From the NCBI GenBank assembly GCA_049472335.1, contig JBLIRO010000007.1, positions 13,244 to 77,243 of the forward strand: a stretch of 64,000 nucleotides of DNA, in the 5' to 3' direction. The position numbers and the translations under genes were made by a program. The notes beneath the pieces were generated by a model. That model saw only the letters and a program-made list of their open reading frames with translations. It had not been told where the DNA came from and searched no databases. The DNA is from a bacterium (GTDB lineage Bacteria; SZUA-182; DTGQ01; JAFGSM01). How positions within the stretch are numbered: position 1 is the stretch's first letter; each line of letters begins with the position of its first letter. Below, piece after piece: positions 4,805 through 34,948 of the stretch.

Positions 4805-5653
4805 ATGACTTCGGTGATGAAAATAAAATTCTGGGGAGTCCGGGGCTCGATCCCGAGCCCCGGCAAGTCTACCGTCAGATATGGTGGTAACACTTCCTGC
4901 GTCAGTATCCACACCGGCTCAAATAAAATCCTGGTCTTAGACGCAGGCACAGGTATACGTGAGCTGGGTAATTCAATAAAAGGGGGCCATGAAGAAATTT
5001 TTATCCTTTTATCCCATCGCCACTGGGACCACATTCAGGGCTTTCCATTCTTCTGGCCCATCTATGAATCGCACAGAAAGGTTAATATCCTTTCTAATGA
5101 ACAGGGGAAAAGCATGATATTATCCCTCCTCAATCAGATGGACGGCGCCCATTTCCCCATTGAACCACAAAATCTACCTTCCCTTCATCAATGCATAAAT
5201 GAAGATGTCTCGTCTTTCCTCAGCCATTATGGCTTTACTGTCTCCAGGATAGCCACGAACCATCCGGGCAATGGTTATGGTTATCGCGTTCAGAAAAATA
5301 GTCATTCCGTGATATATCTCACTGATAATGAGCTTGAACCTCCATATAAAAAAGAAACAGAATTTTATGAATTTGTCCAATTCTGCAGGGATACGGATTT
5401 GCTGATACACGATGCTCAATATCTGGAAAAGGATATGCCTCAGAAGCATGGTTGGGGCCATAGCCTGATAATCCAGGTATGCAAGTTAGCCGCGGAGGCA
5501 AAAGTAAAACACTTGATATTGACACACCACGATCCTGAGCGCACTGATAAAGAGATAGATGCCATCCAAAACAGTGCGCGCACCTGGTTCAAGGATAAAG
5601 GCCTTGATATCCAATGCACCGCTGCCTATGAAGGGCTCACAATTTATATCTAA
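4805..5653 (+). CDS. MBL-fold metallo-hydrolase
   Basis: 282 aa with the HxHxDH motif (SHRHWDHIQG) and an N-terminal KFWGVRGSIPSPG...YGGNTSCV pattern. Confidence 0.8.
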   Translation: MTSVMKIKFWGVRGSIPSPGKSTVRYGGNTSCVSIHTGSNKILVLDAGTGIRELGNSIKGGHEEIFILLSHRHWDHIQGFPFFWPIYESHRKVNILSNEQGKSMILSLLNQMDGAHFPIEPQNLPSLHQCINEDVSSFLSHYGFTVSRIATNHPGNGYGYRVQKNSHSVIYLTDNELEPPYKKETEFYEFVQFCRDTDLLIHDAQYLEKDMPQKHGWGHSLIIQVCKLAAEAKVKHLILTHHDPERTDKEIDAIQNSARTWFKDKGLDIQCTAAYEGLTIYI

Positions 5654-6702: not shown

Positions 6703-7827
6703 ATGAATATGAAAAAGCAGGAATGGATCATTATTCAGGAGGAACTAGAGAACCGGATCCTATACGGACTTAGCTGTGAATGGAAACTGGCTCTTTCGAT
6801 AGCAAATCTCCCCAAAAGAGACCTTATGCAAATGCCCTTATTCAGCATCAAGGATATGAAAGGAAAATGGGGATATTGGTGCAAAGAAAGGCGTGAAATC
6901 TCATTAAGCCGGAACCTTATTTTGAATCATTCATGGGATTCCGTCAGGGAGATACTGATTCATGAAATGGCCCATCAATATACGGATATGATCCTATTCG
7001 CCCGGGATGAGCCTCCACATGGGCCCAGTTTCCACAATGCATGCCATATTCTCAGGGCTAATCCAAAGGCATCGGGTTCTTATCCACCCCTTGATGAAAG
7101 GGTTTCAAATAAAACACTCAATCTTGAAGACAAGATTCTGATAAAAGTAAAAAAGCTTTTGGCCCTTGCGAAAAGTCATAACAAAAACGAGGCGGAAGCA
7201 GCAATGACCAAAGCTCATGAGTTCATGGCAAGATACAACCTAGACCCTTTTGCACCCGGAAAAAGCCGTAATTTTGGTAGTATTTTCCTAGGCAAGCCTG
7301 CTCTTCGACATAGCAGGGCAGATTATCTCCTTGCAAATATTCTGAATGATTTTTATTTCGTGCAAGGGATTTGGGTTTCTGCTTATGTTCTGGTAAAAGG
7401 CAAAATGGGAAGGGTTTTGGAAATAAACGGAACTATTCGGAATATCCAGATAGCATTTTATATATATGATTACATCCAAAATTTCATTAAGAGCCAATGG
7501 TCATATTATATTAAAGATAAGGAATTAAACCATCACGGAAAGACCGATTTTGCTGTGGGCATTCTGGAAGGCTTTCGATCTAAAATAACTTCTCAGGAAA
7601 AGGAGGAAAAAGGTCCCGTGATGAGCCGTTCACTTATAGAAACTGAAGACCCTCTATTTGTAAATTATTTACATTATAGATATCCTCGCATCTCAACATT
7701 TAACAAAAGTATCTATACCCGGGATGAAAAACTGGTGAATGATGGAAAAAGGATCGGCAAAGGGCTTATTATTTCTGAAGGGGTTACGGAAAAAAAAGAA
7801 AGTCAAAGATTTCTGCCAGGGAATTAA
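6703..7827 (+). CDS. SprT-like zinc metallopeptidase domain protein with a DUF2786-like helix
   Basis: It contains an HEMAHQ (HExxH) motif and then KVKKLLALAKSHNKNEAEAAMTKAHEFMARYNL, which resembles DUF2786. Confidence 0.6.
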   Translation: MNMKKQEWIIIQEELENRILYGLSCEWKLALSIANLPKRDLMQMPLFSIKDMKGKWGYWCKERREISLSRNLILNHSWDSVREILIHEMAHQYTDMILFARDEPPHGPSFHNACHILRANPKASGSYPPLDERVSNKTLNLEDKILIKVKKLLALAKSHNKNEAEAAMTKAHEFMARYNLDPFAPGKSRNFGSIFLGKPALRHSRADYLLANILNDFYFVQGIWVSAYVLVKGKMGRVLEINGTIRNIQIAFYIYDYIQNFIKSQWSYYIKDKELNHHGKTDFAVGILEGFRSKITSQEKEEKGPVMSRSLIETEDPLFVNYLHYRYPRISTFNKSIYTRDEKLVNDGKRIGKGLIISEGVTEKKESQRFLPGN

Positions 7828-7983: not shown

Positions 7984-8306
7984 ATGGACCAGTTAAACAA
8001 AATGTATTCAGAATTCGATGATATGTATAAAAAACTAAAGGGATGAAAGAACGCTTCGAAGATATAAAACAATTTTATGAAGAGGCGGATAAACAGGTTG
8101 AAGAGATGAGGCACCACCATGAAGAGGAAGCCAGAAAGATCTTTGAGGCATTGGAAAAACGGGATGAGGAGATCAGAAAATATTTAGAGACCAAAGAACA
8201 GGACAGAATAAGTCATTTACTCGCTGATATGGGGAATTTAATAGATGAGATGTTTGATATAAGGCTCAAACTTCTCGATAGCAGATATGATAAGGAGAAT
8301 GCATGA
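7984..8306 (+). CDS. small coiled-coil protein, either frameshifted or a 20-codon leader ORF coupled to an 87-codon ORF
   Basis: A strong SD (GAAGGAG, 6-nt spacer) precedes the ATG at 7984, and that ORF stops at 8044-8046. The stop overlaps the ATG of ORF 8043-8306 (ATGA), which has no good SD of its own. Both parts are charged and helical. Confidence 0.45.
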
Positions 8307-8602
8307 TTCAAAAAAAGATAAGATTGACACGGAAAGAAGCAGAGAGTTATGTGATTCCCTTTGGCAAATTTAATATGGTGGCTGTTGTTACAGATATCGG
8401 AATGATCGGATGCGGGATGTTTGATGTGTTAGCATTGGATAAATTCGATTACCCCGCAGCAAGGCTAAAATCAGATACTGGAGGTCTCATTGACAACGTT
8501 GATGACCTCTTGAGGGGAATTGTTAAGGATGCAAACAAAGCTGCCCAAAACAGGGGTATAGAGATTGGCATGACAGGCGCACAAGCCCTTGATTTATTGT
8601 AA
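8303..8602 (+). CDS. DUF1805 (YunC-like) domain protein
   Basis: 99 aa with the pattern IPFGKFNMVAVVTDIGMIGCGMFDV...ARLKSD...A, typical of YunC-family proteins. It overlaps the upstream ORF by 4 bp. Confidence 0.65.
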   Translation: MIQKKIRLTRKEAESYVIPFGKFNMVAVVTDIGMIGCGMFDVLALDKFDYPAARLKSDTGGLIDNVDDLLRGIVKDANKAAQNRGIEIGMTGAQALDLL

Positions 8603-8859: not shown

Positions 8860-10374
8860 ATGGGCATTAAAGAATCTATATTTAACAGTTTAAATGGAGC
8901 GTTTGTGGGAGAGGCAATTTCCGAATATGCCACAACTGTTCTATTGATAGATGACTCACGTACAGTTTGTGAGGCTATGAATGAAATCTTTAAGGATGAA
9001 GAGGATATAAAATTTTATTATTGCACTGATCCGGCACAAGAGGAAAAAATGGCCGAGGAAGTTAAACCTACTGTCATCCTTCAGGACCTTGTTATGCCAG
9101 GGATAGATGGATTAACCATGGTTAGCAAGCTCAGAGAAAATAAAATAACCCGCGATGTTCCCATGATTGTTCTTTCCGCCGAAGAAGATCCTAAGATCAA
9201 GGCCGAGGCCTTCGCGCTTGGTGCCAATGATTTTATGGTAAAATTTCCGAACAAAATCGAACTCGTAGCCCGGATTCGTTATCATTCAAAAAGTTATATC
9301 AATTTGTTGCAACGCAATGAAGCTTATCAGGCCCTGATTGAAAGTCAAAGAAGGCTTGAACTACGTAACCGTTTTATCCGTGAAACCTTTGGTCGTTACC
9401 TGTCTGACGATGTAGTAAACAAACTTCTGGAATCTCCCGAAGGGCTTAATCTGGGCGGAGAAAAGCGTAAGTTGACCATCATGATGTCCGATTTAAGGGG
9501 TTTTACATCTCTGGGAGAGAAATTGACACCTGAGCAAGTGGTTAATGTTATCAATAACTATCTAGAGACTATGACGAACATCATTTTTAACTACAATGGA
9601 ACTATTGTGGAGTTTATTGGAGATGCCATTCTCTCTATTTTCGGAGCGCCAAACCAAATGGAGGATGATGCAGCTAAGGCAGTTGCATGTGGGATTGAAA
9701 TGCAATTAGCCATGGATTCCGTCAACGAAAGGAATAAAAAAGAGGGCATGCCGGAATTAAAAATGGGTATAGGTATTAATACCGGTGAGGTCGTTGTAGG
9801 AAATATCGGCTCACAAAAACGCACCAAGTACGGCGTTGTTGGAAATAATGTAAATCTTGCTTCCAGGATAGAATCGTTTACCGTCGGCGGCCAAATACTC
9901 GTTTCTGAAAATACCAAGAAGGATGTGGGTGACATATTGAAGGTGAGTAAAGAGATGGAAGTAGAAACAAAGGGTATAGATGAACCGATTACAATATATG
10001 AAGTGGTTGGAATCAGCGGCGAATATGACCTTTATATGCCCGAAATATTTAGAGATGAACTTCTCTGTCTGCCAAAGGAGATACCAATAAAGTTTGTTTT
10101 AGTTAAAGATAAAAGCGCAAGCGGCACACTTCATCTGGGAAGTATCATCAAACTGTCATCTTTAGAGGCGGAAATAAAATCCCAGACAAAGGTCCGAGAA
10201 CTCTGTGATTTAAAATTTCTGTTGGTGGGACAAAATGACGAAGATATTCCCATTGAGCTTTACGCAAAAGTGATTGACCGGAAAACCGACGATGCCTCCA
10301 CGTTCTTAGTCCATTTCACATCCATGCCTAAAGTCACGGAAAATTATTTAAAAGGGCTTTTGGAAACCTGTTAA
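8860..10374 (+). CDS. response-regulator receiver fused to a class III adenylate/guanylate cyclase, with a C-terminal PilZ-like region
   Basis: REC domain: LLIDDSRT...ILQDLVMPGIDGL...DFMVKF. Cyclase domain: IMMSDLRGFT, FIGDAILSIFGAP, GINTGEVVVGNIG, YGVVGNNVNLASRIE. The last ~120 aa contain DKSASG, resembling the PilZ DxSxxG motif, but I see no clear RxxxR. Confidence 0.9.
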   Translation: MGIKESIFNSLNGAFVGEAISEYATTVLLIDDSRTVCEAMNEIFKDEEDIKFYYCTDPAQEEKMAEEVKPTVILQDLVMPGIDGLTMVSKLRENKITRDVPMIVLSAEEDPKIKAEAFALGANDFMVKFPNKIELVARIRYHSKSYINLLQRNEAYQALIESQRRLELRNRFIRETFGRYLSDDVVNKLLESPEGLNLGGEKRKLTIMMSDLRGFTSLGEKLTPEQVVNVINNYLETMTNIIFNYNGTIVEFIGDAILSIFGAPNQMEDDAAKAVACGIEMQLAMDSVNERNKKEGMPELKMGIGINTGEVVVGNIGSQKRTKYGVVGNNVNLASRIESFTVGGQILVSENTKKDVGDILKVSKEMEVETKGIDEPITIYEVVGISGEYDLYMPEIFRDELLCLPKEIPIKFVLVKDKSASGTLHLGSIIKLSSLEAEIKSQTKVRELCDLKFLLVGQNDEDIPIELYAKVIDRKTDDASTFLVHFTSMPKVTENYLKGLLETC

Positions 10375-10533: not shown

Positions 10534-13500
10534 ATGACTTCGATAACGTGGCTTCATATATCAGACTTGCATGTTTGTCATCCAAAATACGGACACAGCT
10601 ATGAGGAAGTTGCGAAGAAGTTAGTGGACGATTTGAACCGTCTCAAGGATGAACACAACCTGATTCCAGACATGATCTTTTTTACAGGTGATATTGTATT
10701 CGGCCAGAAAAGCGCGGGTGAAGGGAAATCGATACCAGAACAGTATAAGGAAGCAAATATATTCCTTGAAAGCATTAGGACCACTTTTGACGAAGGCTTT
10801 CCCAAAAAAAATATTTTTCTTGTCCCTGGCAATCACGATATAAACCTTACGGTTGACAATAAGTCTCTTATACTATGGCTTCGGGAAAAAGCGGATCTCC
10901 TGAAGTTAACGGAGGTGATCCACGAACCTGCCAGTCTATGGCAGTCTTATATAACTAAATTTAAAGAATATGAAGAGTTTTTAAAAACTTACGGATACGA
11001 GCATCTAATAGGTGATCCGTCAAAAGCTATTTATTCCGATATACGGGAATTCAAAGGGATCAAGGTCGCTATTGCAGGTTTCAATTCTGCATGGTCATCT
11101 TCCGGGAAAGGGAAAAAGGAAAAGGGAAAGCTTTGGCTGGATGGAGAACGGCAATTGTCATCCTTTCGGGCAATCCTCAATAAGGCTAATTTCTCCATAG
11201 CCTTGATGCACCACCCTCTTAGCTGGTTTACAAAAAAAGAATTCCCTTTTTTTCAACGCAAACTGGAACCTGAATTCAAATTTCTGCTTCATGGTCATTA
11301 TCATACAAGCTGGATAACTCAGATTAATGAACATAATCGGATTGCCGCAGGACCTTGCTACTATAATACGGAGAAAGAACCAGGATATAATTTCGTTCGT
11401 TTGAACCTTGAAGAGGGAAAAGGTGAAGTATGGCTCAGGGAATATAATCCATCTGGACCCGGTGAATGGGTTCCATGTCAAACAGACGATGGACAAACGG
11501 ATCAATATGGAAGATATTATTTGATGAATGTCGCCTGGTTGAAGGATATGAAGGATACTCTGAGCATAGGCGCAGGAATAGAAAACGGAGAAACATCTCC
11601 ATCAAGGGTGTATGAAATTCCCAGCATTCATGAAAAAACAGGCATCGAAACATTTCATTCAGATGTTTTTTTACCCGCCCGACTGATTTGTAAGTTTTAT
11701 GAAACTATACATAGTATGGATAAGAGAGAGCTACACGAAGAGGTTTTTCAGGGTGGTCCTACACGAATCAAAGACATGTTCTTACCAAAAGAGGATATAG
11801 ACTTCCAAATGGTGGACCTGAAAAAAGATATTGAGATCCCATTTGAAAAAAAAGGGCCATGGCTCCAAGAATTAAGAACGGAAGAGCAAATCCGAAATCA
11901 CTTCATCCCTTTATGTAAGATATTTAAACATATAGATGAATGGATTTCCAAGGACAGGGATATACTTCTGTATGGCCCCCCATTCTGCGGCAAGACAAGC
12001 CTCCTGACATTTCTGTCGTTGGAAGCCAAGAGGCGATATGGAGACCAGTTGCCCATTGTGCGGCTTAAACCAACCAAGGATCTAAAAAGTGAAGAGATAG
12101 AGGGGGCAGTGACAAGACTGCTTCAACACCTTGAGCATATGGATATCTTTGGCAAAAAAAACCAGGCAATTCTGGTGGTTGACAATATTCATAAGCCCGG
12201 GATATTTGCCATAACCAGAGAATTATTAAAATCACCCCATCATTGCAGGGTCTGGGGCGCCGCCCGTTGCTCCCGATTCGATGAAATCCTGAGCAAGGAC
12301 GAGGAAAATCCATGGAATAAAAAAGGGATTATAAAATATGATTGTGGATTGATTGAAGAAAAAGACGTTGATTATTTCACCGATCATGTTCTAAAGCCCC
12401 TGTTAATTGCCAATGGAGAAGAAAATCAGATTGATGATGTAAAAGCCACTATAAAGTCTATGGACCGAACACCGATCAGGTTCCTTTGTCAAGTGTGGAA
12501 ATTGATTAAAGACAAAAGACTCGATGAAGGCCTTGGATATGCTTCATTGATAAGAAAAGAACCTACAGGTGTGGACGAGATTGTAAGGTCGATTTTACCT
12601 CACAATATCGCCGGTTTAAAGGCAATTGCCATCGCTGCCTTTCTTCAGGGGCCGTCTTGGGAGCTATTAACATATGTTCTTTCAAAAACCGAGAGTTTCG
12701 GAGATGATCTGGCAGCAGAAACCATAACGGATTTGCGCCAATCTCTTGCATTATCTAATGATCCGGAAGAACCAAACAAGGTCTTCATGTATGCCCAGAT
12801 ACAGGAAGAGATTTGCAGACCGGGGAATCTCTCGGATTTCTTTAAGAATGAGATCTGGGGAGGGATCCAAGGATTTCTTAAAGACTGGAAGCATCTAAAA
12901 GAACAGGGTTCCCATGAAAAACTATGCACATTCTGGCTATCCCTATCGGACCTGGCAAAGGAAAATGATCAGAAAGAGATCGCCGTAAATAGTGCTGAAA
13001 GAGCCCTGGAATATGCCTCCGGAGAACAGGAAATAAAGGCCCTGTTTGAAATAGCATTGGCAACAAATCGCCTTAAGGGGAAATGGTGTGAAGACACCAT
13101 CAATCTACTTTGGCGTGCGGTTGAAAAATCCGGGCAAATGGAAAAAGTAACATTAGACGCTGCTTATGCAAAGGCAATTCTTGGAAACCTTTTTCTCAAT
13201 ATCGACCCGCCAAATATTGAAAGGGCCATATCTTTCTTGCACGAAGCCAAAAATGCCTGCGAATTCCTCGGGGCAGACTCAGACGTAGGGCATCTGAATA
13301 AAATGCTTGCACTTGCGAAGATAAATCAAGGGGACAATAAGATCATGCAGGCTGTCCATCATGCGCGACAGGCACTGGAAACATATCGTAAAATCAAGGA
13401 TATTACCAAGGAGATAGAAAGCCTTTATTTGCTTGCTTACTGCCTGCGGATGCAATCAAAACCGGATTGGCCTCAGGCAATCACTTGTTATGGGGAAGCT

Positions 13501-16500
13501 TTGGATCTTTTGAAAGAGCCGGAGCAGCAAGCTGAGCGTGCACAGGCTCTTTATCAGATGGCATTTTGTCTTTATAATCAGGTTAATCCTGATTGGTCTT
13601 CAGCAATCAGGGCATCCGATGAATCTGTCAAGATTCTTAGAGGACTTAAAGACACGCAAGGTTTGATCGATCATTTATTACAGTTTGCATGGTTGTGCCA
13701 TAATCAGGCTAAACCGAACTGGGAAGAGGCAATCTCAAGTTACCGGGAAACACTTGAACTTCCAAAGGCCCCCGAACAAAATGCCGACCGGGCCCTGATT
13801 TTTTATCTGCTGGGATATTGCCTATATAATCAACCTGATCCGGATTGGTCCGGGGCTATCATGTATTTTCAGGATGCGTTGAAACTACAACAGAACCAGG
13901 GACAAGATATAGATAAAGGACTGACACTCTATCAGTTGGCCTTTTGTCTCCATAATAAACCTGAGCCGGATTGGGAAGAAGCTATCAGATCTTATCAGGA
14001 TGCATTAAGGTTCCTGACAGGACCAACTCAACAGACAGAACGGGCGGAGGCATTATTTTATCTGGCATACTGCCTGTATAATCAACCGAAACCTGACTGG
14101 GCCTCAACGATCGCTTGTTACCAAGGTGCACTGGAGCTTCTTACGGACCCGGGAAAAAAAGAAGAACGGTCGGAATCATTTTATCAACTGGCCTTTTGTC
14201 TCCATAACCAATCGGACCCGGACTGGGCAGAGGCCATAGCTTGTTACAAGGAAGCTTTAGAGCTGCTTACCGATACAGGGGAACAATCAGACAGAGCAAT
14301 GGTCCTTTATCAACTGGCCTTTTGCCTTCATAACCAGCCGGACCCGGACTGGGCAGAGGCCATAACACATTACAGGGAAGCCCTGGAACTATTTATTGAT
14401 CCAGAGCACTGGGCTGACAGGGCAATGACATTGCATCAGTTGGCCTTTTGCCTTCATAGCCAGCCGGATCCGGATTGGGCGGAATCTATCGTCCGGTACA
14501 GGGAAGCCTTAGACCTGCTTACTGATCCGGAATACGAATCTGAAAGAGCAATGACACTTTATCAACTGGCCTTTTGCCTCCATTATCAGCCGGATCCGGA
14601 TTGGGCACAGGCGATAACTTACTATAGTAAGGCCTTGGAGCTACTTACCGGTTCAGAACAACAATCAGACAGGGGAATGACTTTATATCAGACTGCCCTT
14701 TGCCATCAATATCAGCCGGATCCGGATTGGGCACAGGCTATAATACACTACCAGGAAGCATCGGAACTACTTACTGATACGGAACATGAAGCTGAGCGGA
14801 TACAATCACTTTACTGGTTGGCATTTTGTTTCCATAATCAACCTGAGCCAGACTGGGCACAGGCTATACAATATTACCGGAAGGTATTGGAACTTCTTTC
14901 GGGACCGGAACATCAATACGAAAGGGCACTATCACTCTACCAGTTGGCTTTTTGCCTTTACAACCAGCCTGAACCTGATTGGCCGGAAGCAATCAAAGCC
15001 TCCATAGAATCTGTCGAGATTTTCGAAAGCCTGGATGATAAGCAAGGCTTGCTGGATTCTCTGCTTCAGTTTGCCTGGTTGTGCCATAATCAGTGCTATC
15101 CTGATTGGTTCAGAGCGATCAGCAGTTACCAGGAAGCCTTAGAACTGCTTACAGGGCCGGAACATAGAACCGAACGTGCTCGAACTCTGTATCATTTAGG
15201 ATTTTGCCTTCAAAACCTTATGGAACCTAAATGGTCTGAAGCTATTACATGTTATATGCAAGCTTTAGAAATACAAACAGATGAAAAGCAACAGACTGAT
15301 AGGGCAAAAACCCTTTATCAATTGGCATTTTGTTTTCAACATCAGGGGGAACCAAACTGGTCAAGGGCGATTACCTGTTACCGCAAAGCATTAGAGCTCC
15401 AGACAGACCCGGAGCAGAAAACTGAGAGGGGACAAACTTTATATCAATTGGCATTTTGTCTCCACAATAGGCAGAAACCAAATTGGTCAGTGGCAATCAA
15501 ATATTATCAAGAGGCATTGGAACTTCAGACGGATACGGAAGAAGATCGCAAAGAAAGAGCAAAGACCCTTTATCAACTGGCATCCTGCTTTCACAAAAGG
15601 CCGACCCCTAATTTTTCAAAAGCAATCCTCTATTATAACGAAGCTTTAGAAATTCAAACGGACCCGGATCAAAGAATCGATCGGGCACGAACGCTCTATC
15701 ATTTGGCATCTTGCCTCCGTAATCAGCCGGAACCGGATTTGTTCCAGGCAGCCGCCTATTACAGAGAGGCACTGAGACTTCAATCAGATCCCGATCAAAG
15801 ATATGACCGGGCAATGACTCTGTATTGGTTAGCGTATTGCGTTTATAAACAACCGGATCCGGATTGGTCCGAGGCAATCAATGTATCGCGTGAATCAGTA
15901 AAAATCTTTAAGGATCTGGAAAAAAATGATGAACTATTGGATTCCTTGATACAGCATGCCTGGTTATGTTACAACCAACCGAAGCCGGACTGGTCTGAGG
16001 CAATAACCCATTACCGGGAGCTAATAGAACTCCAATCGGATCCGGATCAGCAGGCAAACAAGGCAAGATCCCTTTATCTGCTGGCTTATTGTCTCCATAA
16101 TCAGCCTGATCCTGACTGGTCAGAAGCGATAATGTATTACCAGGAAGCTCTAGAATTTCAGACATCTTCAGAACAACAACTCGACAGGGCATGGACACTT
16201 TATCAATTGGCATATTGTCTTCATAATCAATCCGAACCCAACTGGTCTGAAGCCATTAAATATTACCAGGAGGCACTAAGATTACAGATTAATCCTGAAC
16301 AAAGGGCTAACCGTGCACTGACTCTATACTGGATTGCTTCTTGCCTTCATAATCAGCCGGAGCCGGATTGGTCTATGGCCATCAAAACGTCGAAAGAATC
16401 TGTAGAAATCTTTAAGGACCTGAATAAAAAGCAGGATCTTTTGGATTCTTTAATACAGTTTGCCTGGTTGTGTCATAACAAACCGGAGCCGGATTGGGAC

Positions 16501-17475
16501 AATGCAATCAAGTATTATCTTGAGGCTTTGGAATTACAAACAGAGCCGGAACAGCAAGACGACAGGGCATTGAACCTTTTTCAACTGGCAGCCTGTTACC
16601 ATCAAAAACTGGAGCCGGATTGGGACAACGCGATCAAATGTTACAATGAAGCATTGGATTTGCAAACGGATAAGGATCAGCTGGACAACAGGCCACGCAT
16701 GCTTTGTCGTCTGGCTTTTTGCTACCATAATAAGCCTGAGCCGGACTGGGCCCAGGCAATAGATTGTTATCGAAAGGCGCTGGATTTACTAACCTCTCCG
16801 GAGCAAAGATCCGAACGGGCACGGACCCTTTATCAGTTGTCGTATTGTCTTTATAAACAGCCGGAACCGGATTGGGATAACGCAGGCAGGTTTGCAAAAG
16901 AAGGGCTTGAGCTTTCCCGGCTTCTTGGAGAAAGGAGACAACCGCCGTTGCCTCCTTCTCAACTGGCAAGTATATTCGAGGAAATGTCGAGTCCGGATCT
17001 GGAGGCAGCTACCGATTTCCGGCGAGAGTCGGTTGAAACCTTAAAAAACGTGAATAGCATCTTTGATCTCATTGTCACAGTCGACAGAAAAAGCGAATTC
17101 AACGAAGGCGACTATTGGGCAAAGAAGCTCGAGAATACAAGGCTTATCGACATTGATGAATCTGATAATATCGCTTTGGAGGATCAAAGGATGGCCTTTT
17201 TGGATCTCCGCCGAAATGACCTAGACGGGGTTTTCAGTATTGCCAAAAAACTCCATAACGGTCCTCAGCATTCCCGGGCGCTCGGGCTGGCAGCCATTGC
17301 CCACTTCGCAAAGGATGAAAGCGATGCCGCTCTTGAGGATTTGATAAACGCAAAAGCAGGTCGTGAAGACCTTACCTGGCTGAAAAAAATAGCCGAAGGA
17401 TACTTTAAAAGATATAACAGGGATAAGCTGGAAGGCTTCTTAACACTGGTTGATGAGGCAACACAAACTGGATGA
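10534..17475 (+). CDS. giant multidomain protein: metallophosphoesterase, P-loop NTPase, 28 x 42-aa TPR-like repeats and a unique C-terminal domain
   Basis: 2313-aa uninterrupted ORF. The five calcineurin-like phosphoesterase motifs occur in order (HISDLH, FTGDIVF, VPGNHD, LMHHP, LHGHYH). Walker A is LLYGPPFCGKTSLL (nt 11974-11997) and Walker B is AILVVDNIH (~12169-12192). The 126-bp repeat array spans 13414-16945. Confidence 0.9.
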   Translation: MTSITWLHISDLHVCHPKYGHSYEEVAKKLVDDLNRLKDEHNLIPDMIFFTGDIVFGQKSAGEGKSIPEQYKEANIFLESIRTTFDEGFPKKNIFLVPGNHDINLTVDNKSLILWLREKADLLKLTEVIHEPASLWQSYITKFKEYEEFLKTYGYEHLIGDPSKAIYSDIREFKGIKVAIAGFNSAWSSSGKGKKEKGKLWLDGERQLSSFRAILNKANFSIALMHHPLSWFTKKEFPFFQRKLEPEFKFLLHGHYHTSWITQINEHNRIAAGPCYYNTEKEPGYNFVRLNLEEGKGEVWLREYNPSGPGEWVPCQTDDGQTDQYGRYYLMNVAWLKDMKDTLSIGAGIENGETSPSRVYEIPSIHEKTGIETFHSDVFLPARLICKFYETIHSMDKRELHEEVFQGGPTRIKDMFLPKEDIDFQMVDLKKDIEIPFEKKGPWLQELRTEEQIRNHFIPLCKIFKHIDEWISKDRDILLYGPPFCGKTSLLTFLSLEAKRRYGDQLPIVRLKPTKDLKSEEIEGAVTRLLQHLEHMDIFGKKNQAILVVDNIHKPGIFAITRELLKSPHHCRVWGAARCSRFDEILSKDEENPWNKKGIIKYDCGLIEEKDVDYFTDHVLKPLLIANGEENQIDDVKATIKSMDRTPIRFLCQVWKLIKDKRLDEGLGYASLIRKEPTGVDEIVRSILPHNIAGLKAIAIAAFLQGPSWELLTYVLSKTESFGDDLAAETITDLRQSLALSNDPEEPNKVFMYAQIQEEICRPGNLSDFFKNEIWGGIQGFLKDWKHLKEQGSHEKLCTFWLSLSDLAKENDQKEIAVNSAERALEYASGEQEIKALFEIALATNRLKGKWCEDTINLLWRAVEKSGQMEKVTLDAAYAKAILGNLFLNIDPPNIERAISFLHEAKNACEFLGADSDVGHLNKMLALAKINQGDNKIMQAVHHARQALETYRKIKDITKEIESLYLLAYCLRMQSKPDWPQAITCYGEALDLLKEPEQQAERAQALYQMAFCLYNQVNPDWSSAIRASDESVKILRGLKDTQGLIDHLLQFAWLCHNQAKPNWEEAISSYRETLELPKAPEQNADRALIFYLLGYCLYNQPDPDWSGAIMYFQDALKLQQNQGQDIDKGLTLYQLAFCLHNKPEPDWEEAIRSYQDALRFLTGPTQQTERAEALFYLAYCLYNQPKPDWASTIACYQGALELLTDPGKKEERSESFYQLAFCLHNQSDPDWAEAIACYKEALELLTDTGEQSDRAMVLYQLAFCLHNQPDPDWAEAITHYREALELFIDPEHWADRAMTLHQLAFCLHSQPDPDWAESIVRYREALDLLTDPEYESERAMTLYQLAFCLHYQPDPDWAQAITYYSKALELLTGSEQQSDRGMTLYQTALCHQYQPDPDWAQAIIHYQEASELLTDTEHEAERIQSLYWLAFCFHNQPEPDWAQAIQYYRKVLELLSGPEHQYERALSLYQLAFCLYNQPEPDWPEAIKASIESVEIFESLDDKQGLLDSLLQFAWLCHNQCYPDWFRAISSYQEALELLTGPEHRTERARTLYHLGFCLQNLMEPKWSEAITCYMQALEIQTDEKQQTDRAKTLYQLAFCFQHQGEPNWSRAITCYRKALELQTDPEQKTERGQTLYQLAFCLHNRQKPNWSVAIKYYQEALELQTDTEEDRKERAKTLYQLASCFHKRPTPNFSKAILYYNEALEIQTDPDQRIDRARTLYHLASCLRNQPEPDLFQAAAYYREALRLQSDPDQRYDRAMTLYWLAYCVYKQPDPDWSEAINVSRESVKIFKDLEKNDELLDSLIQHAWLCYNQPKPDWSEAITHYRELIELQSDPDQQANKARSLYLLAYCLHNQPDPDWSEAIMYYQEALEFQTSSEQQLDRAWTLYQLAYCLHNQSEPNWSEAIKYYQEALRLQINPEQRANRALTLYWIASCLHNQPEPDWSMAIKTSKESVEIFKDLNKKQDLLDSLIQFAWLCHNKPEPDWDNAIKYYLEALELQTEPEQQDDRALNLFQLAACYHQKLEPDWDNAIKCYNEALDLQTDKDQLDNRPRMLCRLAFCYHNKPEPDWAQAIDCYRKALDLLTSPEQRSERARTLYQLSYCLYKQPEPDWDNAGRFAKEGLELSRLLGERRQPPLPPSQLASIFEEMSSPDLEAATDFRRESVETLKNVNSIFDLIVTVDRKSEFNEGDYWAKKLENTRLIDIDESDNIALEDQRMAFLDLRRNDLDGVFSIAKKLHNGPQHSRALGLAAIAHFAKDESDAALEDLINAKAGREDLTWLKKIAEGYFKRYNRDKLEGFLTLVDEATQTG
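13414..16945 (+). repeat. in-frame tandem array of 28 x 126 bp (42 aa) inside the giant ORF
   Basis: The repeat consensus is RAxTLYQLAFCLHNQPDPDWxEAIxYYxEALELxTDPEQxxD. I counted the units by hand. One unit has an extra codon. Confidence 0.9.
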
Positions 17476-17631: not shown

Positions 17632-18048
17632 TTATAGGGATTGTATAAAACCTTCCCTAATTAAATAGCTTGTTATAGCACTCGTTATCTTTTCTGCAAT
17701 CTTAAGGTCCTCTTTGGCTTCCTCCTTACCAATACTCAAATCAAACTCATAATCTCCAATTTGCCTTTCACGAAAAAGACGGGTAAGCAATTTACTAAAC
17801 TCTTTTGAAAAAATAGAAGTTTTAATGAAATACTGATTAAAAGCACTAATCACGGCAGAATGTTTGGAAAAAACAAGTTGTCTCGTCAGTAGAATAGCTT
17901 CCATTGCATAGAAAGCTGCATAGTAAGCCCTGGATGAGGCAAAGTCATAGTCACCTTCATCAATCTGCCGTTTTGCAGATGCAACAGATCTGTTAGCCTT
18001 TTCTATCATCGTTTTTAATTGATCTCTGAGTAATTTATCATTGTTCAT
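17632..18048 (-). CDS. HEPN domain protein (toxin of a MNT-HEPN pair)
   Basis: 138 aa with the PF05168-like pattern GDYDFASSRAYYAAFYAMEAILL...SKHSAV...RERQIGDYE. It overlaps the upstream nucleotidyltransferase gene by 4 bp. Confidence 0.8.
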   Translation of the reverse strand: MNNDKLLRDQLKTMIEKANRSVASAKRQIDEGDYDFASSRAYYAAFYAMEAILLTRQLVFSKHSAVISAFNQYFIKTSIFSKEFSKLLTRLFRERQIGDYEFDLSIGKEEAKEDLKIAEKITSAITSYLIREGFIQSL

Positions 18049-18365
18049 AAGACTATCCCTTCTTTTGTAACATTCATCAAAAGGGGACTATAGATCTGCC
18101 TTTGATATCTTTCTTCTGAGATAGCAAATGCAGAAATAACCGCATTATATTGATAAAGGGCCTCACCTGTTATTTCATCGATGATCTGGTTGACGTTCCG
18201 CGATACCTTGTCAACAACTACTAAACAATCATAATCGGAGCCTTGAACATCATCTCCTCGCGCCCTTGATCCAAATAAAATAACCTGTTTAAGGTGACTG
18301 CCTATTTTTTTTCGAATTTGAGACACAAGGTATTCCAATACTTCATCTTTTCTGACATGCTTCAT
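18045..18365 (-). CDS. minimal nucleotidyltransferase (MNT antitoxin)
   Basis: 106 aa with the LFGSRARGDDVQGSDYDCLVVVD pol-beta-type NTase motif. Confidence 0.9.
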   Translation of the reverse strand: MKHVRKDEVLEYLVSQIRKKIGSHLKQVILFGSRARGDDVQGSDYDCLVVVDKVSRNVNQIIDEITGEALYQYNAVISAFAISEERYQRQIYSPLLMNVTKEGIVL

Positions 18366-18636
18366 TATTTCCCCCTGAATGATAGAAAGAAGAGCGCCAT
18401 TCTTCGTTTATGTAAAATGTACTTTTATTCATTGACATTTTACCAACCCTTTTATAACATTTCAATTGATTTAAATTAATATATTAACAATACGTTAAGT
18501 TTCATTTTTTCTCCAAAAATCAAATTTAAATCATTACATATAGGAGAAATTATTTATGAGACCAATTACTAGTCGAGATAGAGTAAGAGATATTTTTAAT
18601 CTTTTTTCAAGTAGAATTAGAGAAAATAGTAATAAT

Positions 18637-18912
18637 TTAATAAACCTGATCATGTGGTCCAATATTGACAGGAACAATGGTTTTTTCTGAAATGAAAAAT
18701 TCCATGGTAATGCGATAGGAGATATTGATTGATACCGAGTAGAGATCCTTTAGATTACCAGATAACATATGCAGCCTTAATGAAGGGTGATAAGGATTTA
18801 ATTCTAGAAGTTTTAATACCTTTTCATAATGGCCAAGTAATTCCGGGTGTTTCCTGGCAAATTTTTTTGCCCGCTTGATATAGCTCTTAGTGTAGATGAG
18901 AGCGTAACTCAT
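18637..18912 (-). CDS. RelE/StbE (YafQ-like) family type II toxin
   Basis: 91 aa ending in ...HMLSGNLKDLYSVSINISYRITMEF...VNIGPHDQVY. It overlaps the upstream antitoxin by 4 bp. Confidence 0.7.
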   Translation of the reverse strand: MSYALIYTKSYIKRAKKFARKHPELLGHYEKVLKLLELNPYHPSLRLHMLSGNLKDLYSVSINISYRITMEFFISEKTIVPVNIGPHDQVY

Positions 18913-19163
18913 CCCTTAGTAATGCGCTTGATGTGATCTTCCACATCTTCTTTTATATAATTACCAGTTTCTAATTCCCTGCGGGCATCTGCAAGGGCTG
19001 CTTCCAGCTCATATTCCCGAAAACGGTTGTAGGTTTCCATATCGACCACCACATATTTACCTTTTCCCCTGACTGTTATGATTACTTCTTCCTGATCTTT
19101 TATTAAATCATCTATCACAGATACCCCTTTTTTCTTCAACTCATTTGCAGATATATATGTCAT
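18909..19163 (-). CDS. Phd/YefM-type antitoxin
   Basis: 84 aa; the sequence ISANELKKKGVSVIDDL...VIITVRGKGKYVVVDMETYNRFREYE is typical of prevent-host-death antitoxins. Confidence 0.65.
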   Translation of the reverse strand: MTYISANELKKKGVSVIDDLIKDQEEVIITVRGKGKYVVVDMETYNRFREYELEAALADARRELETGNYIKEDVEDHIKRITKG

Positions 19164-19328
19164 AGAGTACCCCCAATCTTTAAATTTATAATCTACTTTT
19201 ATACACCATAATAAATACTATTAATAGTTTTGTCAATAGCTCATTTAGATTAAATAATTAAAGTACATTTAAATATACTCCCAGCAATCAAAATATATTT
19301 TAAAAATCCTGAATAGATATTGAGCAAT
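18952..19328. repeat. direct repeat copy 1 (antitoxin gene plus its upstream region)
   Basis: It aligns by eye with 19471-19850 at an offset of ~520 bp, with only scattered mismatches across the antitoxin ORF and ~80 bp upstream. Confidence 0.8.
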
Positions 19329-19460
19329 ATCATTATATTCTCTTACAATAAACATACTGAAGGCAATGTCATTGAGTTAAGCATTTACCGTTAAAATATC
19401 CTCTTTTTAAAGGAGCAATTAAGTATTGTGTCCCCTTAATTTCCCCTCCTTAATTTCCCC

Positions 19461-19682
19461 TTAATTTCCCTTTATATAATCACCATTTTCTAATTCCCTG
19501 CGGGCATCTGCAAGGGCTGCTTCCAGCTCATATTCCCGAAAACGGTTGTAAGTTTCCATATCGAGCACCACATATTTACCTTTCCCCCTGACTGTTATTA
19601 TTACTTCTTCCTGATCTTTTATAACATCATCTATCACAGATACCCCTTTTTTCTTCAACTCATTTGCAGATATATACGTCAT
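19461..19682 (-). CDS. orphan paralog of the Phd/YefM-type antitoxin (no cognate toxin downstream)
   Basis: 73 aa, nearly identical to the 18909-19163 product through residue ~65, with a divergent truncated C-terminus (GDYIKGN). Confidence 0.6.
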   Translation of the reverse strand: MTYISANELKKKGVSVIDDVIKDQEEVIITVRGKGKYVVLDMETYNRFREYELEAALADARRELENGDYIKGN

Positions 19683-22004: not shown

Positions 22005-22769
22005 CTAACTAAGTTCAATAGGTCTTATGGATCTGTCCTGCAAAGCCACCTGAAGCTCAATATGTTTGCAATCAAGCTTTTGTAAGACCTTCATGGCATT
22101 TAACTGTACCATATCGTTCATATTGTTCGTCTGACTTATATGCGCCAATACCACATGTTTCAAATCCGTGTGAATAAGGTCCGTCAACAGGGATGCTGAG
22201 TCCTCATTGGAGAGGTGTCCGAACATACCTTTGATTCTTTGTTTAAGCCACCAGGGATATGGCCCCCGGAAAAGCATGCCCGGGTCGTGATTCGACTCCA
22301 GGATTAGACACTGAGACCCTTTGAGGGACTCTCTTACAAGGTGAGTGGGCTTTCCCAGATCGGTTGCCAGACCTATTTTTGATCCTTCACCATAAAAGCA
22401 AAAACCGACAGGATCGGCCGCGTCATGTAAAACTGAGAAGGATTCAAATCCGATGTCTCCTATTTCAAAACCATTGCCTGCTGAAAAGACATGAAGATTC
22501 TTAATAGGATTGTTCATATTATTTTTAAGATTTTCCCAGGTGCCACGGCTCAGATATACAGGGATGTCGAGTCTTTTAACTAAAACCTCCAAGCCCCTTA
22601 CATGATCCGAATGCTCATGGGTAATCACCACGCCATCCAGTTCATCCGGTTTAATCCCAATCTGGTCCAGTCGCCGCAAAATCTCTTTACAGCTAAATCC
22701 TGCATCAATCAGAACACGGGTCTTAGATGAAGTTACAAATGAGGCATTACCCGAGCTTCCGCTTCCCAA
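22005..22769 (-). CDS. MBL-fold metallo-hydrolase (YycJ-like)
   Basis: It has the motif VITHEHSDHVRG. The true start may be a few codons upstream (KISLKICVLGSGSSGNA reads through behind a G-rich SD up to ~22793). Confidence 0.8.
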   Translation of the reverse strand: MGSGSSGNASFVTSSKTRVLIDAGFSCKEILRRLDQIGIKPDELDGVVITHEHSDHVRGLEVLVKRLDIPVYLSRGTWENLKNNMNNPIKNLHVFSAGNGFEIGDIGFESFSVLHDAADPVGFCFYGEGSKIGLATDLGKPTHLVRESLKGSQCLILESNHDPGMLFRGPYPWWLKQRIKGMFGHLSNEDSASLLTDLIHTDLKHVVLAHISQTNNMNDMVQLNAMKVLQKLDCKHIELQVALQDRSIRPIELS

Positions 22770-32397: not shown

Positions 32398-33603
32398 CTA
32401 AAAAGTAAATGGGGTTTTGAATATTTTCTTTTCTTCTTTTAAGTTCTTTTCCTTGTTTTTTTCTAATAAATCACTCTTTTCATCTTTTTCTAAGGGTTTT
32501 TTTTGTGAATTTATTTCCTGTTTTTTTTGAATCTCAAAGAGTTCTTCCTCAACCGCCTTTATTTCTTCATTGATGTTCTGTTGCTCATTCATGAGAGTTT
32601 TCTTTTCCTGAAGTATTTTTTGCATTTCTTCAAGTTTCTTTTTTTGTTGCTGGAGTTCCTCCATATCTTTTTGTAGTTTCTGTCTCTCCAAATCAATTTC
32701 TTTGTCTTTTAGTAAAATATCTTTATGAACTTTAAGATCATCATTATAAAGAAAGTTAATAAAAATAAACTCTCCACCTTCATCCATGGTTCCTTCTAAT
32801 GGTCTACAAATAGGAATTTGTTGGGCATTTCTGGAAATAAAAAGTTTGATTTTTTCGAAAATACTTAGTGGGGTAATATAAAGTTCCTCATTATCTTCTA
32901 ATATCTTTATAAAATAGTAAGCAAAAATAGAATGGTTTTCAAAACCGGTATCTGATACTGGTTGAATATGACCAGAGGTTAAGACCTGACGTGACTTTAG
33001 CTTTCCATAATTTTTTATATAATTATAGTCGATTTTTGCAGGAGGTTTAAAAACCGATCTTAGCAAAAGAGTGCCTGAAAAACATGAATCAGAGACTAAA
33101 TAAATATGCTTACATCCAGCGGCTTTAATTAAATCGTGAATTGTAGAATTTGGTATATAGGTGCTGTAATCACTAAATTTAGAATCAGAAGGTATCCAAT
33201 TTCCGGTATTGAGCTCAGTATCCAGATATCCATGACCTGCAAAATAGATAAACAAGTTATCATCTTGTTTAACCTTTCCTATCAGACTTCTAAATTCTTT
33301 TATTATCCTTCGTCTTGTTGCATCTTGATTAATAAGAAGTACAATATTTTCCTCAGGAAAACCATATTTATGTATTAAAAGCTCATATATTTTTTTAACA
33401 TCATTCACAGCGGTTTGTAAAGGGTCCCATTCATCATATTTATTGATCCCGATTAGAAAACCCCAGAATTCACCTTTTGAAGGGAGATTATTTATATCCT
33501 TTGAGGACACAAAGATACCACGATCCTCACAAAAACTTATTTTAGGACAAAAAAAATATCCTAATATTAATATAATGAAAATACAGCAAATTATTTTTTT
33601 CAT
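32398..33603 (-). CDS. caspase-family (peptidase C14) protein with a signal peptide and a C-terminal coiled coil
   Basis: The catalytic dyad contexts are IYFAGHGY and IYLVSDSCFSG. There is an N-terminal hydrophobic signal (MKKIICCIFIILILGYFF). The last ~110 aa are a K/E/Q-rich heptad-like coiled coil. Confidence 0.85.
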   Translation of the reverse strand: MKKIICCIFIILILGYFFCPKISFCEDRGIFVSSKDINNLPSKGEFWGFLIGINKYDEWDPLQTAVNDVKKIYELLIHKYGFPEENIVLLINQDATRRRIIKEFRSLIGKVKQDDNLFIYFAGHGYLDTELNTGNWIPSDSKFSDYSTYIPNSTIHDLIKAAGCKHIYLVSDSCFSGTLLLRSVFKPPAKIDYNYIKNYGKLKSRQVLTSGHIQPVSDTGFENHSIFAYYFIKILEDNEELYITPLSIFEKIKLFISRNAQQIPICRPLEGTMDEGGEFIFINFLYNDDLKVHKDILLKDKEIDLERQKLQKDMEELQQQKKKLEEMQKILQEKKTLMNEQQNINEEIKAVEEELFEIQKKQEINSQKKPLEKDEKSDLLEKNKEKNLKEEKKIFKTPFTF

Positions 33604-34075: not shown

Positions 34076-34948
34076 ATGACATTATATAAATTTTTCACGC
34101 CTTCATGCATTTTGGTCCTTTTGTTTTTTTCTCTTCCCCAATATAGTTTTGCAAAGCAGTCACAGATTATAGAGGCAGATGGCTATTCATGCATGGGTGA
34201 TGAGAAATCGAGAAAGCAGACAAGAGATGATGCCCTGATAGATGCAAAGAAAAAAGCAGTTCAACATTGTGTGACTTATATTAAGAGTGAAACAAGGATC
34301 GAAAATGCTATCCTCACGCAAGATATTATTGATGCATATACTAATGCAGATATACATATTCTTAATGTGCAAGAATTGGGCTGGTCAAAAGACAAGGATT
34401 CTGGTGAATGCTTTTACGTCCACATAAAGGCAGAGGTCATTCCCCGTGAAGAAGTGATGGAAAAAATAATACAGGGGAAAGCTTTAGAAAAGAACCCTGA
34501 AGCCCCTCTCAATGTCTCTGTCTGGACTGATAAAAAAGAATATTCAAAAGGAGATAAAATAAAAATATATATAAGAGGGAACAAGCCCTTCTTTGGAATA
34601 GTTCTCTATAAGGAGGCTAATGGAAATTTAGTCCAGCTCCTACCTAATCCTTATAGACGAGATCAGTATTTCAATGGCGGTGTTGTCTATGAGATACCCT
34701 CAGGAAATGATAAATTTGAATTGGAGGTGAGACCTCCCTTTGGTGAAGAGATTGTCACCCTTTATGCAAGCACTGAGATGCTGGGTGAAATAGAACTCGA
34801 AAAAGCGAAGGGTGTATATTTGGTAAAGACAAAATATGATGAAGTGCCTTTTAAAACCCGTGGAATTGCTATCACAAGAAAAAAACAAAGGGAAAAAATT
34901 CCTGCCGAATTTTCAGAAGTAAACTATGCTGTTAAGATAGATGAATAA
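34076..34948 (+). CDS. secreted LPP20-like plus DUF4384 domain protein
   Basis: It has a signal peptide ending SFA-KQ, an N-terminal LPP20-like segment (ADGYSCMGDEKSRKQTRDDALIDAKKKAVQHCVTYIKSET) and a DUF4384 pattern (VSVWTDKKEYSKGDKIKIYIRGNKPFFGIVLYKEANGNLVQLLPNP...EIVTLYAS). Confidence 0.65.
   Translation: MTLYKFFTPSCILVLLFFSLPQYSFAKQSQIIEADGYSCMGDEKSRKQTRDDALIDAKKKAVQHCVTYIKSETRIENAILTQDIIDAYTNADIHILNVQELGWSKDKDSGECFYVHIKAEVIPREEVMEKIIQGKALEKNPEAPLNVSVWTDKKEYSKGDKIKIYIRGNKPFFGIVLYKEANGNLVQLLPNPYRRDQYFNGGVVYEIPSGNDKFELEVRPPFGEEIVTLYASTEMLGEIELEKAKGVYLVKTKYDEVPFKTRGIAITRKKQREKIPAEFSEVNYAVKIDE

Follow-up and report, generated by a model that had tools for sequence, protein, structure and literature searches.

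Among described defence proteins, the closest counterpart of the gene reported here is DS-8 (DefensePredictor system 8), a single protein combining a metallophosphatase with a NACHT module, which protects E. coli against phage and loses its defence activity when either the metallophosphatase catalytic residues or the NACHT module is mutated (DeWeirdt et al., Science 2026, PMC13092281). A preprint by Kibby et al. had already named calcineurin-like phosphoesterases among the effectors found at the N-terminus of bacterial NACHT proteins, and Kaur et al. (2021) had done so for TRADD-N proteins; most Avs sensors are built from helical repeats resembling tetratricopeptide repeats (TPRs) (PMC13581612). 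We analysed a 64,000-nucleotide stretch of bacterial DNA (the window; GTDB lineage Bacteria; SZUA-182; DTGQ01; JAFGSM01; GenBank assembly GCA_049472335.1, contig JBLIRO010000007.1, positions 13,244 to 77,243 of the forward strand) that contains a giant gene encoding a calcineurin-like metallophosphoesterase (MPE), a P-loop NTPase and a very long TPR array in one polypeptide. From its sequence, predicted structure and similarity to known systems, we consider the product probably to be a single-chain conflict or immunity protein of the STAND type (signal transduction ATPases with numerous domains), resembling nucleotide-binding leucine-rich repeat (NLR) proteins, in which a TPR sensor would gate a phosphoesterase.

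A preliminary description, made from the letters of this DNA alone, had proposed one uninterrupted open reading frame (ORF) of 2313 residues. Translation and an ORF scan bore this out: the frame starts with ATG, contains no internal stops and is the sole long ORF across positions 10534 to 17475. An open frame of 6.9 kb in DNA of 42% GC is not explicable by chance, and a Shine-Dalgarno-like GGGGAG lies 8 nt 5' of the ATG. The layout of effector, NTPase and repeat sensor given in that description was also recovered, with an NTPase that behaves like a STAND-type conflict module, and was divided into the features below (NBD, nucleotide-binding domain; AF2, AlphaFold 2; pLDDT, predicted local distance difference test score). 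Handles beginning with P and L denote homologous proteins and homologous loci, respectively.

10534–17475, forward strand: giant gene, complete ORF of 2313 aa (MPE, NTPase, TPR array, C-terminal cap)
10534–11538, forward strand: MPE domain, aa 1–335 (Pfam, PADLOC, NCBIfam, Foldseek, residue conservation)
11539–11790, forward strand: poorly conserved linker, aa 336–419 (pLDDT below 50 at aa 341–419, gapped in the family alignment)
11791–12828, forward strand: NTPase module, aa 420–765 (NBD 420–604, helical bundle 609–659, winged-helix-like domain 669–764)
11974–11997, forward strand: Walker A motif GPPFCGKT, aa 481–488
12169–12186, forward strand: Walker B motif ILVVDN, aa 546–551
12829–13395, forward strand: irregular, all-helical TPR-like region, aa 766–954 (AF2 secondary structure, pLDDT 75–90)
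13396–16926, forward strand: array of 28 TPR units of 42 aa, aa 955–2131 (TPR_12, register count, Foldseek)
16927–17472, forward strand: degenerate 29th unit and conserved helical C-terminal cap, aa 2132–2313

The five phosphoesterase motifs claimed for the N-terminal domain (HISDLH, FTGDIVF, VPGNHD, LMHHP and LHGHYH) are present as quoted and in that order. They supply the metal-binding and catalytic residues D11/H13, D53, N100/H101 (followed by D102), H226/H227 and H255/H257, and in an alignment of 120 homologous domains D11, H13, D53, N100, H101, H226, H227, H255 and H257 were 97–100% conserved. Pfam Metallophos (PF00149) matched aa 7–258 (E 3e-10) with 41.3 bits, well above its gathering cut-off of 21.5, and spanned profile positions 4–190 of 191; judged by these residues, the domain looks catalytically competent. 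Foldseek comparison of the modelled domain returned the B. subtilis YydB model (9a6c_B, E 6e-13), the glycerophosphodiesterase GpdQ (2e-6) and Rv0805 (2e-5), with the Mre11/SbcD nucleases structurally more distant, and the predicted fold is class III phosphodiesterase-like.

The same domain was matched by several defence models. The PADLOC candidate PDC-S60 (PDLC05051) aligned with aa 7–304 (E 3e-37; positions 4–292 of a 1027-position profile), the PADLOC 'Effector' model PDLC00736 with aa 5–338 (E 5e-19), NCBIfam DS8_antiphage (NF053861) with E 5.5e-32 and 110.5 bits against an equivalog cut-off of 790 bits (profile positions 1–274 of 994), and the NCBIfam DS9_1 anti-phage phosphoesterase with E 2.4e-9. 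A search of 5.8 billion proteins showed that this MPE subfamily (40–46% identity over approximately 330 aa) forms the N-terminus of hundreds of proteins, in which it is joined to NACHT and LRR (many in cyanobacteria), NACHT and FGE-sulfatase, AAA_16/NB-ARC and TPR, TIR, WD40, or kinase and histidine-kinase modules; the catalytic residues are all kept across the NACHT-, TPR-, TIR- and WD40-linked members. Relatives of the domain carry the JGI label 'cyclic AMP phosphodiesterase CpdA'. Given the DS-8 and PDC-S60 matches, the earlier listings of this effector type and the hundreds of MPE-headed proteins, the effector is of a known type. The preliminary description had called the effector unusual and recognised no named system that combines it with this Cys/PDW-containing repeat; that the effector itself is unnamed does not hold, since DS-8 is already validated and the effector type had been catalogued in NACHT and TRADD-N proteins.

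The central module proved harder to classify. Both nucleotide-binding motifs that had been read from the sequence, Walker A GPPFCGKT and Walker B ILVVDN, are there and are conserved in the family, with G/F/G/K/T of Walker A and D550 of Walker B invariant in two family alignments (A1 and A2). The second Walker B position is N551 in the giant protein and most relatives and D in P0121, P0003 and P0130, and asparagine in place of the second acidic residue may mean slow or absent hydrolysis. We infer from the alignments a likeness of two family-wide features to STAND motifs, of the Walker B pattern hhhhD[DN] to the 'DD' motif and of a conserved WxAAR strand to the sensor-1 arginine. A Pfam scan of the giant protein (24 matches at E ≤ 1) contained no NACHT (PF05729), NB-ARC or AAA_16 family, and among the AAA families only a weak, sub-threshold match of AAA (PF00004; E 5e-4) to the NTPase. 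When the NTPase family profile was compared by hhalign with the NACHT modules of MPE-NACHT proteins, only 36 columns around the P-loop aligned. NACHT identity was rejected on the grounds of the missing PF05729 match and this restriction to the P-loop.

Searching the PDB by sequence with aa 1–950 gave only marginal matches to AAA+ P-loops (RFC and p97, E ≥ 0.04), and the best match of the family profile was the NBD of apo SeAvs7 (entry 9N00), itself marginal at E 5e-4 over 93 columns. An initial AF2 model of aa 1–950, built from an 8-sequence alignment, had a pLDDT of 65 and drew Foldseek matches mostly to its MPE and TPR parts. The NTPase module modelled alone reached a pLDDT of 88.5 and a predicted template-modelling (TM) score of 0.87, and in this prediction an NBD leads into a short bundle of helices, then a winged-helix-like domain and finally helical repeats. 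Its top Foldseek match in the PDB was EfAvs5, a SIR2-STAND protein (E 5.5e-7), and CED-4, Dark, WRR4A, ZAR1 and an AVAST5 filament were also retrieved; RFC, Cdc6/Orc1, ClpA and NSF scored nearly as well as the STAND proteins. The NBD, helical and winged-helix succession is a property of a predicted model with TM-scores of only approximately 0.3 to STAND and AAA+ proteins alike. The module is without the second-region-of-homology signature of AAA+ proteins, and in the AF2 model a winged helix follows the lid, as in STAND proteins and Cdc6. Taking sequence and model together, we concluded that it probably belongs to the AAA+/STAND superclass, leaning towards STAND, and appears to lie outside the named STAND families.

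An exhaustive HMMER scan of 1.84 billion representative proteins with aa 341–950 recovered 34 proteins at E ≤ 1e-3, and among genomes sampled at one per species (185,579 species) only 4 loci of this NTPase clade were found: two in metagenome-assembled genomes (MAGs) labelled simply 'bacterium', one in Anaerolineales and one in an Acidobacteriota MAG. The clade is therefore very rare and patchily spread. Most of its members carry an MPE at the N-terminus, P0130 has TIR_2 and P0127 has EAD1 in that position, and P0150, which is weakly related to the clade, begins with a GT4-conflict domain. The Acidobacteriota protein of L007 (138–3887) has an N-terminal head of approximately 240 aa that matches no known family and keeps the C-terminal cap, and the protein of L005 (3646–6519; Zodletone MAG) is without an MPE, starts approximately 80 aa before the NTPase and adjoins a UvrD helicase. 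Effector swapping on a constant switch is a hallmark of STAND-type conflict proteins, and the occurrence of TIR and EAD1 heads on this clade provides independent evidence for the phosphoesterase as a true immune-type output domain.

The 28 tandem repeats of 42 aa that had been counted in the preliminary description agreed with our register count, which found 28 units in strict 42-aa register over aa 955–2131, with a single spacing of 43, before a degenerate 29th unit. Pfam TPR_12 covered the array in 14 stretches (E 1.5e-59), with ANAPC3/TPR matches beginning from aa ~930, and the unit consensus is EQxxxRAxxLYQLAxCLHNQPxPDWxxAIxxYxEALELxTDP. Compared with each other, the units averaged 45% identity as protein and 56% as DNA (DNA maximum 75%), and Tandem Repeats Finder detected a 126-bp period in parts of the array only, with 72–73% matches. 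Because this period is only local and the DNA identity of the units averages 56%, the array is old and not recently amplified. Recent amplification or an assembly artefact was considered and ruled out by the DNA divergence of the units, by two orthologues of near-equal length, and by the finding that half of the units match their positional counterpart.

Those orthologues, P0121 (2313 aa, 62% identity, 3 gaps) and the protein of L008 (2354 aa, 60% identity), are full-length, and their colinear, almost gapless alignment argues that protein size and repeat number are under selection. Orthologues in the lineage overall share 60–88% identity. Between orthologues, units at the same position averaged 58% identity against 42% off the diagonal, and 14 of the 28 found their best match in the positional counterpart. 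Unit positions 2–4, 22, 26–27 and 30–31 vary both among units and between orthologues, with the scaffold (for example C16, P23, W25 and A28) fixed; such shared variable positions would fit a ligand-binding surface under change. Superimposed on the regular array are four variant unit pairs at uneven intervals (nt ~13522–16674, aa 997–2047), which start near aa 997, 1459, 1754 and 1922, have their P[DN]W anchors at aa 1019/1061, 1481/1523, 1776/1818 and 1944/1986, and share the signature '..AIxASxESVxI..' followed by 'LLDSLxQFAWLCHNQ'. The first two pairs occupy the same positions in P0121, in an alignment viewed to aa ~1513. This arrangement suggests a higher-order organisation of the array, in which the pairs may mark kinks or sub-domains of the solenoid. 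The C-terminal domain of approximately 180 aa (2132–2313) exists as described but is not unique, as the preliminary description had held, since it matches the C-terminus of P0004 (33% identity, E 4e-23), aligns in the L007 homologue too and is therefore a cap conserved in the family.

In the window, purL, purQ and purS lie on one side of the locus and purC and purB on the other, and HEPN/MNT, RelE/YefM and a second YefM gene are adjacent to the giant gene. The two flanking features that bear on its interpretation are:

8860–10374, forward strand: receiver domain fused to a class III nucleotide cyclase, 504 aa (Pfam Response_reg and Guanylate_cyc)
17632–19682, reverse strand: patch of toxin-antitoxin (TA) modules (HEPN/MNT, RelE/YefM, lone YefM), 34% GC; context, not part of the system

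The order SprT-like gene, DUF1805 gene, receiver-cyclase (REC-cyclase) gene and giant gene is syntenic beside pur genes in four or five related MAGs. In L001, whose giant protein is 88% identical, the order is purL-purQ-purS, a metallo-beta-lactamase (MBL) gene, SprT-like, DUF1805, REC-cyclase and giant gene, and L004 (67% identity) has the same order except that Sua5/YrdC separates cyclase from giant gene. L008 and L009 have purB immediately beside the giant gene, with neither TA modules nor purC between, and since the TA modules are missing from L008 we regard them as later additions. PurB of the window is 79–93% identical to that of the related MAGs and at most 69% identical to that of any named taxon. 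An insertion in the pur cluster next to TA modules had been taken as a defence neighbourhood; the context is real, and the island argument is weak, because the synteny in related MAGs shows the insertion to be ancestral to the lineage and not a recent island. The preliminary description had also held that a conserved core-genome setting of the homologues would speak against a defence role. Such a setting was found in part, within the lineage, yet a distant homologue adjoins an Hma system: in an Anaerolineales MAG and two metagenome contigs the homologous gene has no cyclase beside it and lies directly upstream of a complete-looking Hma module (HmaA E 2e-202, HmaB E 3e-130), in the order HmaA (an SNF2 helicase with NOV_C), HmaB (a DUF1156 methylase) and a 264-aa protein (L002, 14297–15979; L003, 13912–15594; L006, 14407–21462). 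P0004 and P0005, two alleles from one metagenome, have a near-identical helicase downstream and unlike genes upstream; one of these upstream contexts contains a family B DNA polymerase and a 1754-aa S8 peptidase/Kelch protein.

Other neighbours were recorded as context. Within the TA patch, the HEPN/MNT pair (17632–18365, reverse strand) matches the PADLOC candidates PDC-S09 and PDC-M05, the RelE/YefM pair lies at 18637–19163, and the lone YefM gene (19461–19682) stands without a neighbouring toxin ORF of 60 aa or more. Upstream of the cyclase and co-oriented with it are genes for a SprT-like/DUF2786/DUF7168 protein, an 87-aa ORF and a DUF1805 protein (6703–7827 and 8043–8602, forward strand), which are syntenic in all related MAGs, with DUF1805 fused to a GH123-like domain in L004. 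Two MBL-fold genes of RNase Z/Lactamase_B_2-like type (4805–5653, forward strand; 22005–22769, reverse strand) flank the locus and are likewise syntenic in related MAGs, and both have a sub-threshold likeness to cyclic-nucleotide phosphodiesterase and anti-Pycsar Apyc1 models (NF041851, E 1.9e-10; PF23023, E 2e-5). Promoter and terminator scans round the giant gene gave counts no higher than in shuffled sequence (25 against 19.7 ± 4.2 and 12 against 9.2 ± 3.0, respectively) and so did not inform operon structure, and an Rfam scan of the window found one tRNA only, with none near the giant gene.

The REC-cyclase gene is on the same strand as the giant gene and ends 160 bp before it. Its cyclase domain was matched by 13 PADLOC PycC profiles (best E 5e-23) and better by Pfam Guanylate_cyc (E 1.4e-31), and the PycC matches reflect generic class III cyclase homology. 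Adenylate cyclases have a K/D pair at the substrate-specifying positions; here these positions are E (in VEFIGD) and G (in KYGVVG), a pair that resembles the E/G pair of the guanylate cyclase Cya2, and the product may be other than cAMP. A REC-cyclase precedes the giant gene in L001, L004, L008 and L009, and none was found beside the distant homologues L002, L003 and L006 or beside three sampled MPE-STAND genes (L012–L014). A functional link between cyclase and MPE is possible within the lineage and is not family-wide.

Starting from what was observed (the domain make-up, the intact motifs, the fold of the NTPase model, effector swapping and homology to the DS-8 effector), we infer a scheme that specifies autoinhibition, oligomerisation, the nature of the trigger and substrate, and a defensive outcome. 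In it, sensing would fall to the 28-unit TPR solenoid with its cap, nucleotide-dependent switching and oligomerisation to the central P-loop module, and enzymatic output to the N-terminal metallophosphoesterase. The resting protein would be autoinhibited and ADP-bound; binding by the solenoid of a ligand, be it a protein of the invader or a host protein that has been perturbed, would lead to nucleotide exchange and oligomerisation, by which the phosphoesterase domains would be clustered and switched on. The active enzyme would then hydrolyse a phosphodiester, in a nucleotide, a nucleotide-derived messenger or nucleic acid, with growth arrest or a blocked invader as the outcome. This immune-type reading is favoured because the MPE is homologous to the effector of DS-8, in which both domains are essential, because its subfamily heads hundreds of NACHT, TPR, TIR and WD40 proteins, and because the NTPase clade exchanges MPE, TIR, EAD1 and, in a weakly related protein, GT4-conflict N-termini. 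It is further favoured by the proximity of the predicted NTPase fold and profile to EfAvs5 and SeAvs7, by the Hma module adjoining a distant homologue, and by repeat variation that fits a changing ligand surface.

Several results weigh against it. NACHT, NB-ARC and AAA_16 models do not recognise the NTPase, its profile similarity to genuine NACHT modules stops at the P-loop, and AAA+ proteins rival STAND proteins in the structural comparison. The DS-8 and PDC-S60 profile matches are confined to the phosphoesterase part, and synteny with conserved length and repeat number at 60–62% identity is steadier than is typical of fast-turnover defence genes. In addition, the three randomly sampled MPE-STAND genes (L012–L014, of TPR, NACHT-LRR and NACHT-FGE types) were solitary among housekeeping genes, with no cyclase; this agrees with the premise of DefensePredictor, by which such systems are often found away from defence islands, yet gives no positive island evidence. 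The steadiness of the locus is also what a non-immune signalling STAND would show, in which a cyclic-nucleotide phosphodiesterase and the receiver-domain cyclase are paired in a second-messenger circuit peculiar to the lineage: two-component input would prompt the cyclase to make a cyclic nucleotide monophosphate (cNMP), and the TPR/NTPase part would gate its removal upon a cellular ligand. The pair are same-strand neighbours in the window, L001, L004 (with one gene between), L008 and L009, the nearest solved enzymes of known activity are the class III phosphodiesterases GpdQ and Rv0805 (cAMP), relatives bear the CpdA name, orthologue length and repeat number are conserved in a core-like setting, and STAND clades without a defence role lie scattered among those with one (PMC13581612). 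We nevertheless consider this explanation unlikely, as the cyclase is not beside L002, L003, L006 or the three sampled MPE-STAND genes, Sua5/YrdC splits the pair in L004, and the syntenic genomes are fairly close relatives, so that shared ancestry suffices for the synteny; the TIR and EAD1 domains on the NTPase clade belong to conflict systems, and the MPE subfamily is of the DS-8 effector type. Also improbable is the reading as a 'signal-erasing' NLR, whose output would be the controlled breakdown of a second messenger, perhaps that made by the syntenic REC-cyclase, and not killing. If true, it would mean that a STAND switch with a 1200-residue TPR sensor gates a cyclic-nucleotide circuit, that two-component, cNMP and NLR-type sensing are joined in one uncultured lineage, and that a previously unclassified STAND-like NTPase clade (GxPFCGKT / hhhhDN / WxAAR) is defined.

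The two genes might instead be read as a Pycsar-like pair, with the upstream cyclase synthesising a cyclic nucleotide upon infection and the giant protein as its effector, in keeping with the 13 PycC profile matches (best E 5e-23) and with adjacent, co-oriented genes 160 bp apart. This is highly improbable: the PycC matches cover the generic class III cyclase domain, the receiver domain is typical of housekeeping two-component signalling, no cNMP-binding family occurs among the 24 Pfam matches of the giant protein (E ≤ 1), and a protein with its own sensor and switch needs no upstream signal. Pycsar membership was rejected because a cNMP-binding domain is missing from the giant protein, a receiver domain is fused to the cyclase, and the pairing is kept in one lineage only. 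Finally, a housekeeping AAA+ scaffold or assembly factor with a TPR platform, in which the MPE would serve metabolism or repair (Mre11/SbcD-like or nucleotide salvage), could account for the weak AAA (PF00004) match just below cut-off, for a PDB sequence search that found AAA+ P-loops (RFC, p97) only, for RFC, Cdc6 and NSF among the top Foldseek matches, and for a conserved place among purine biosynthesis genes. We give it little credence. So rare a clade (34 representatives among 1.84 billion proteins, 4 loci across 185,579 species genomes), scattered over unrelated phyla, cannot be squared with a conserved housekeeping function; TIR and EAD1 replace the MPE at some N-termini, there is no second-region-of-homology signature, a winged helix follows the predicted lid, and the pur adjacency is absent in distant homologues.

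Of these explanations we thus prefer the immune-type STAND protein. The effector subfamily of DS-8 is here joined to a second NTPase clade, one that is very rare and invisible to NACHT, NB-ARC and AAA_16 models. A 28-unit sensor conserved at full length at ~60% identity makes a good case for studying ligand recognition by long TPR solenoids and for mapping variable against scaffold positions, and the lineage synteny with a receiver-domain cyclase offers a concrete candidate substrate for a DS-8-type effector. Should the protein prove to have no part in defence, it would serve as an instructive counter-example to 'guilt by architecture' annotation of STAND proteins.

Elsewhere in the window, a caspase-like Peptidase_C14 gene (32398–33603, reverse strand) lies in the patch of lowest GC (29%), and its product matches the NCBIfam model 'caspase, EACC1-associated type' below the model cut-off. 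The adjoining gene (34076–34948, forward strand) encodes a DUF4384 protein, and the pair could be a second conflict-type module. Two adjacent TPR proteins of 1017 and 536 aa (39293–43949, reverse strand) have classical 34-aa TPRs, are YfiO/BamD-like and are unrelated to the 42-aa array.

We then set the giant protein beside the systems it most resembles. Its enzymatic domain shares the MPE fold and the set of metal-binding motifs with Rv0805, GpdQ, CpdA and YydB; these are small, stand-alone enzymes of 16–20% identity, a distance at which substrate specificity is not transferable. The array shares a 42-aa period and Foldseek matches to KLC1 and KLC2 with TPRs of the kinesin light chain type (TPR_12/TPR_10; NPHP3 and fungal and bacterial NLR arrays), whereas the unit signature C-L-H-N-Q-P-x-P-D-W is family-specific and common only to relatives such as P0004, P0005 and P0121. 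PDC-S60 and PDLC00736 are the best defence-database matches of the giant protein, in its N-terminal part only; the rest of the 1027-position PDC-S60 architecture is not shared, and PDC-S60 is itself a candidate system, for which our search found no paper in the literature library covered. The same search found no paper treating metallophosphoesterase, NACHT and anti-phage activity together and nothing relevant for YydB/YydD.

The family as a whole has several features of STAND proteins, with a P-loop NBD bearing Walker A and B motifs, a variable N-terminal effector and C-terminal TPR repeats. With Avs/AVAST and bNACHT proteins it shares a tripartite plan of N-terminal effector, switch (here predicted as NBD, helical and winged-helix domains) and TPR-like sensor, and EfAvs5 and SeAvs7 are, respectively, the top structural neighbour and, by its NBD, the top PDB profile match of the NTPase. 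It differs from them in that Avs sensors are irregular and shape-complementary and its own array is highly regular, in that the NTPase similarity is marginal and in the rarity of the clade. A PADLOC scan of the giant protein at E ≤ 1 returned PDC-S60, TPR, Effector, mad8 and IetA only, and no Avs or bNACHT model. There are further likenesses to the NTP-dependent conflict systems described by Kaur, Burroughs, Iyer and Aravind (eLife 2020, 2021): EAD1, TIR, TPR-S and GT4-conflict domains occur on relatives of the NTPase clade, and the systems of this kind from multicellular and filamentous bacteria are likewise giant single proteins with superstructure-forming repeats and a calcineurin-like phosphoesterase among their variable N-termini. 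DS-8 remains the nearest comparison, in that one polypeptide joins a homologous N-terminal metallophosphatase to a P-loop switch and then to a C-terminal region. The giant protein scores 110 bits against the DS-8 cut-off of 790, has an NTPase that is not NACHT, is 2.3 times longer and carries a regular array of 28 TPR units, and by these sequence measures it is not a DS-8 equivalog. It sets a DS-8-type effector on a rare and apparently undescribed NTPase clade, coupled to a sensor of unusual length and regularity, and is as such a variant of a known sensor class and not a new kind of system.

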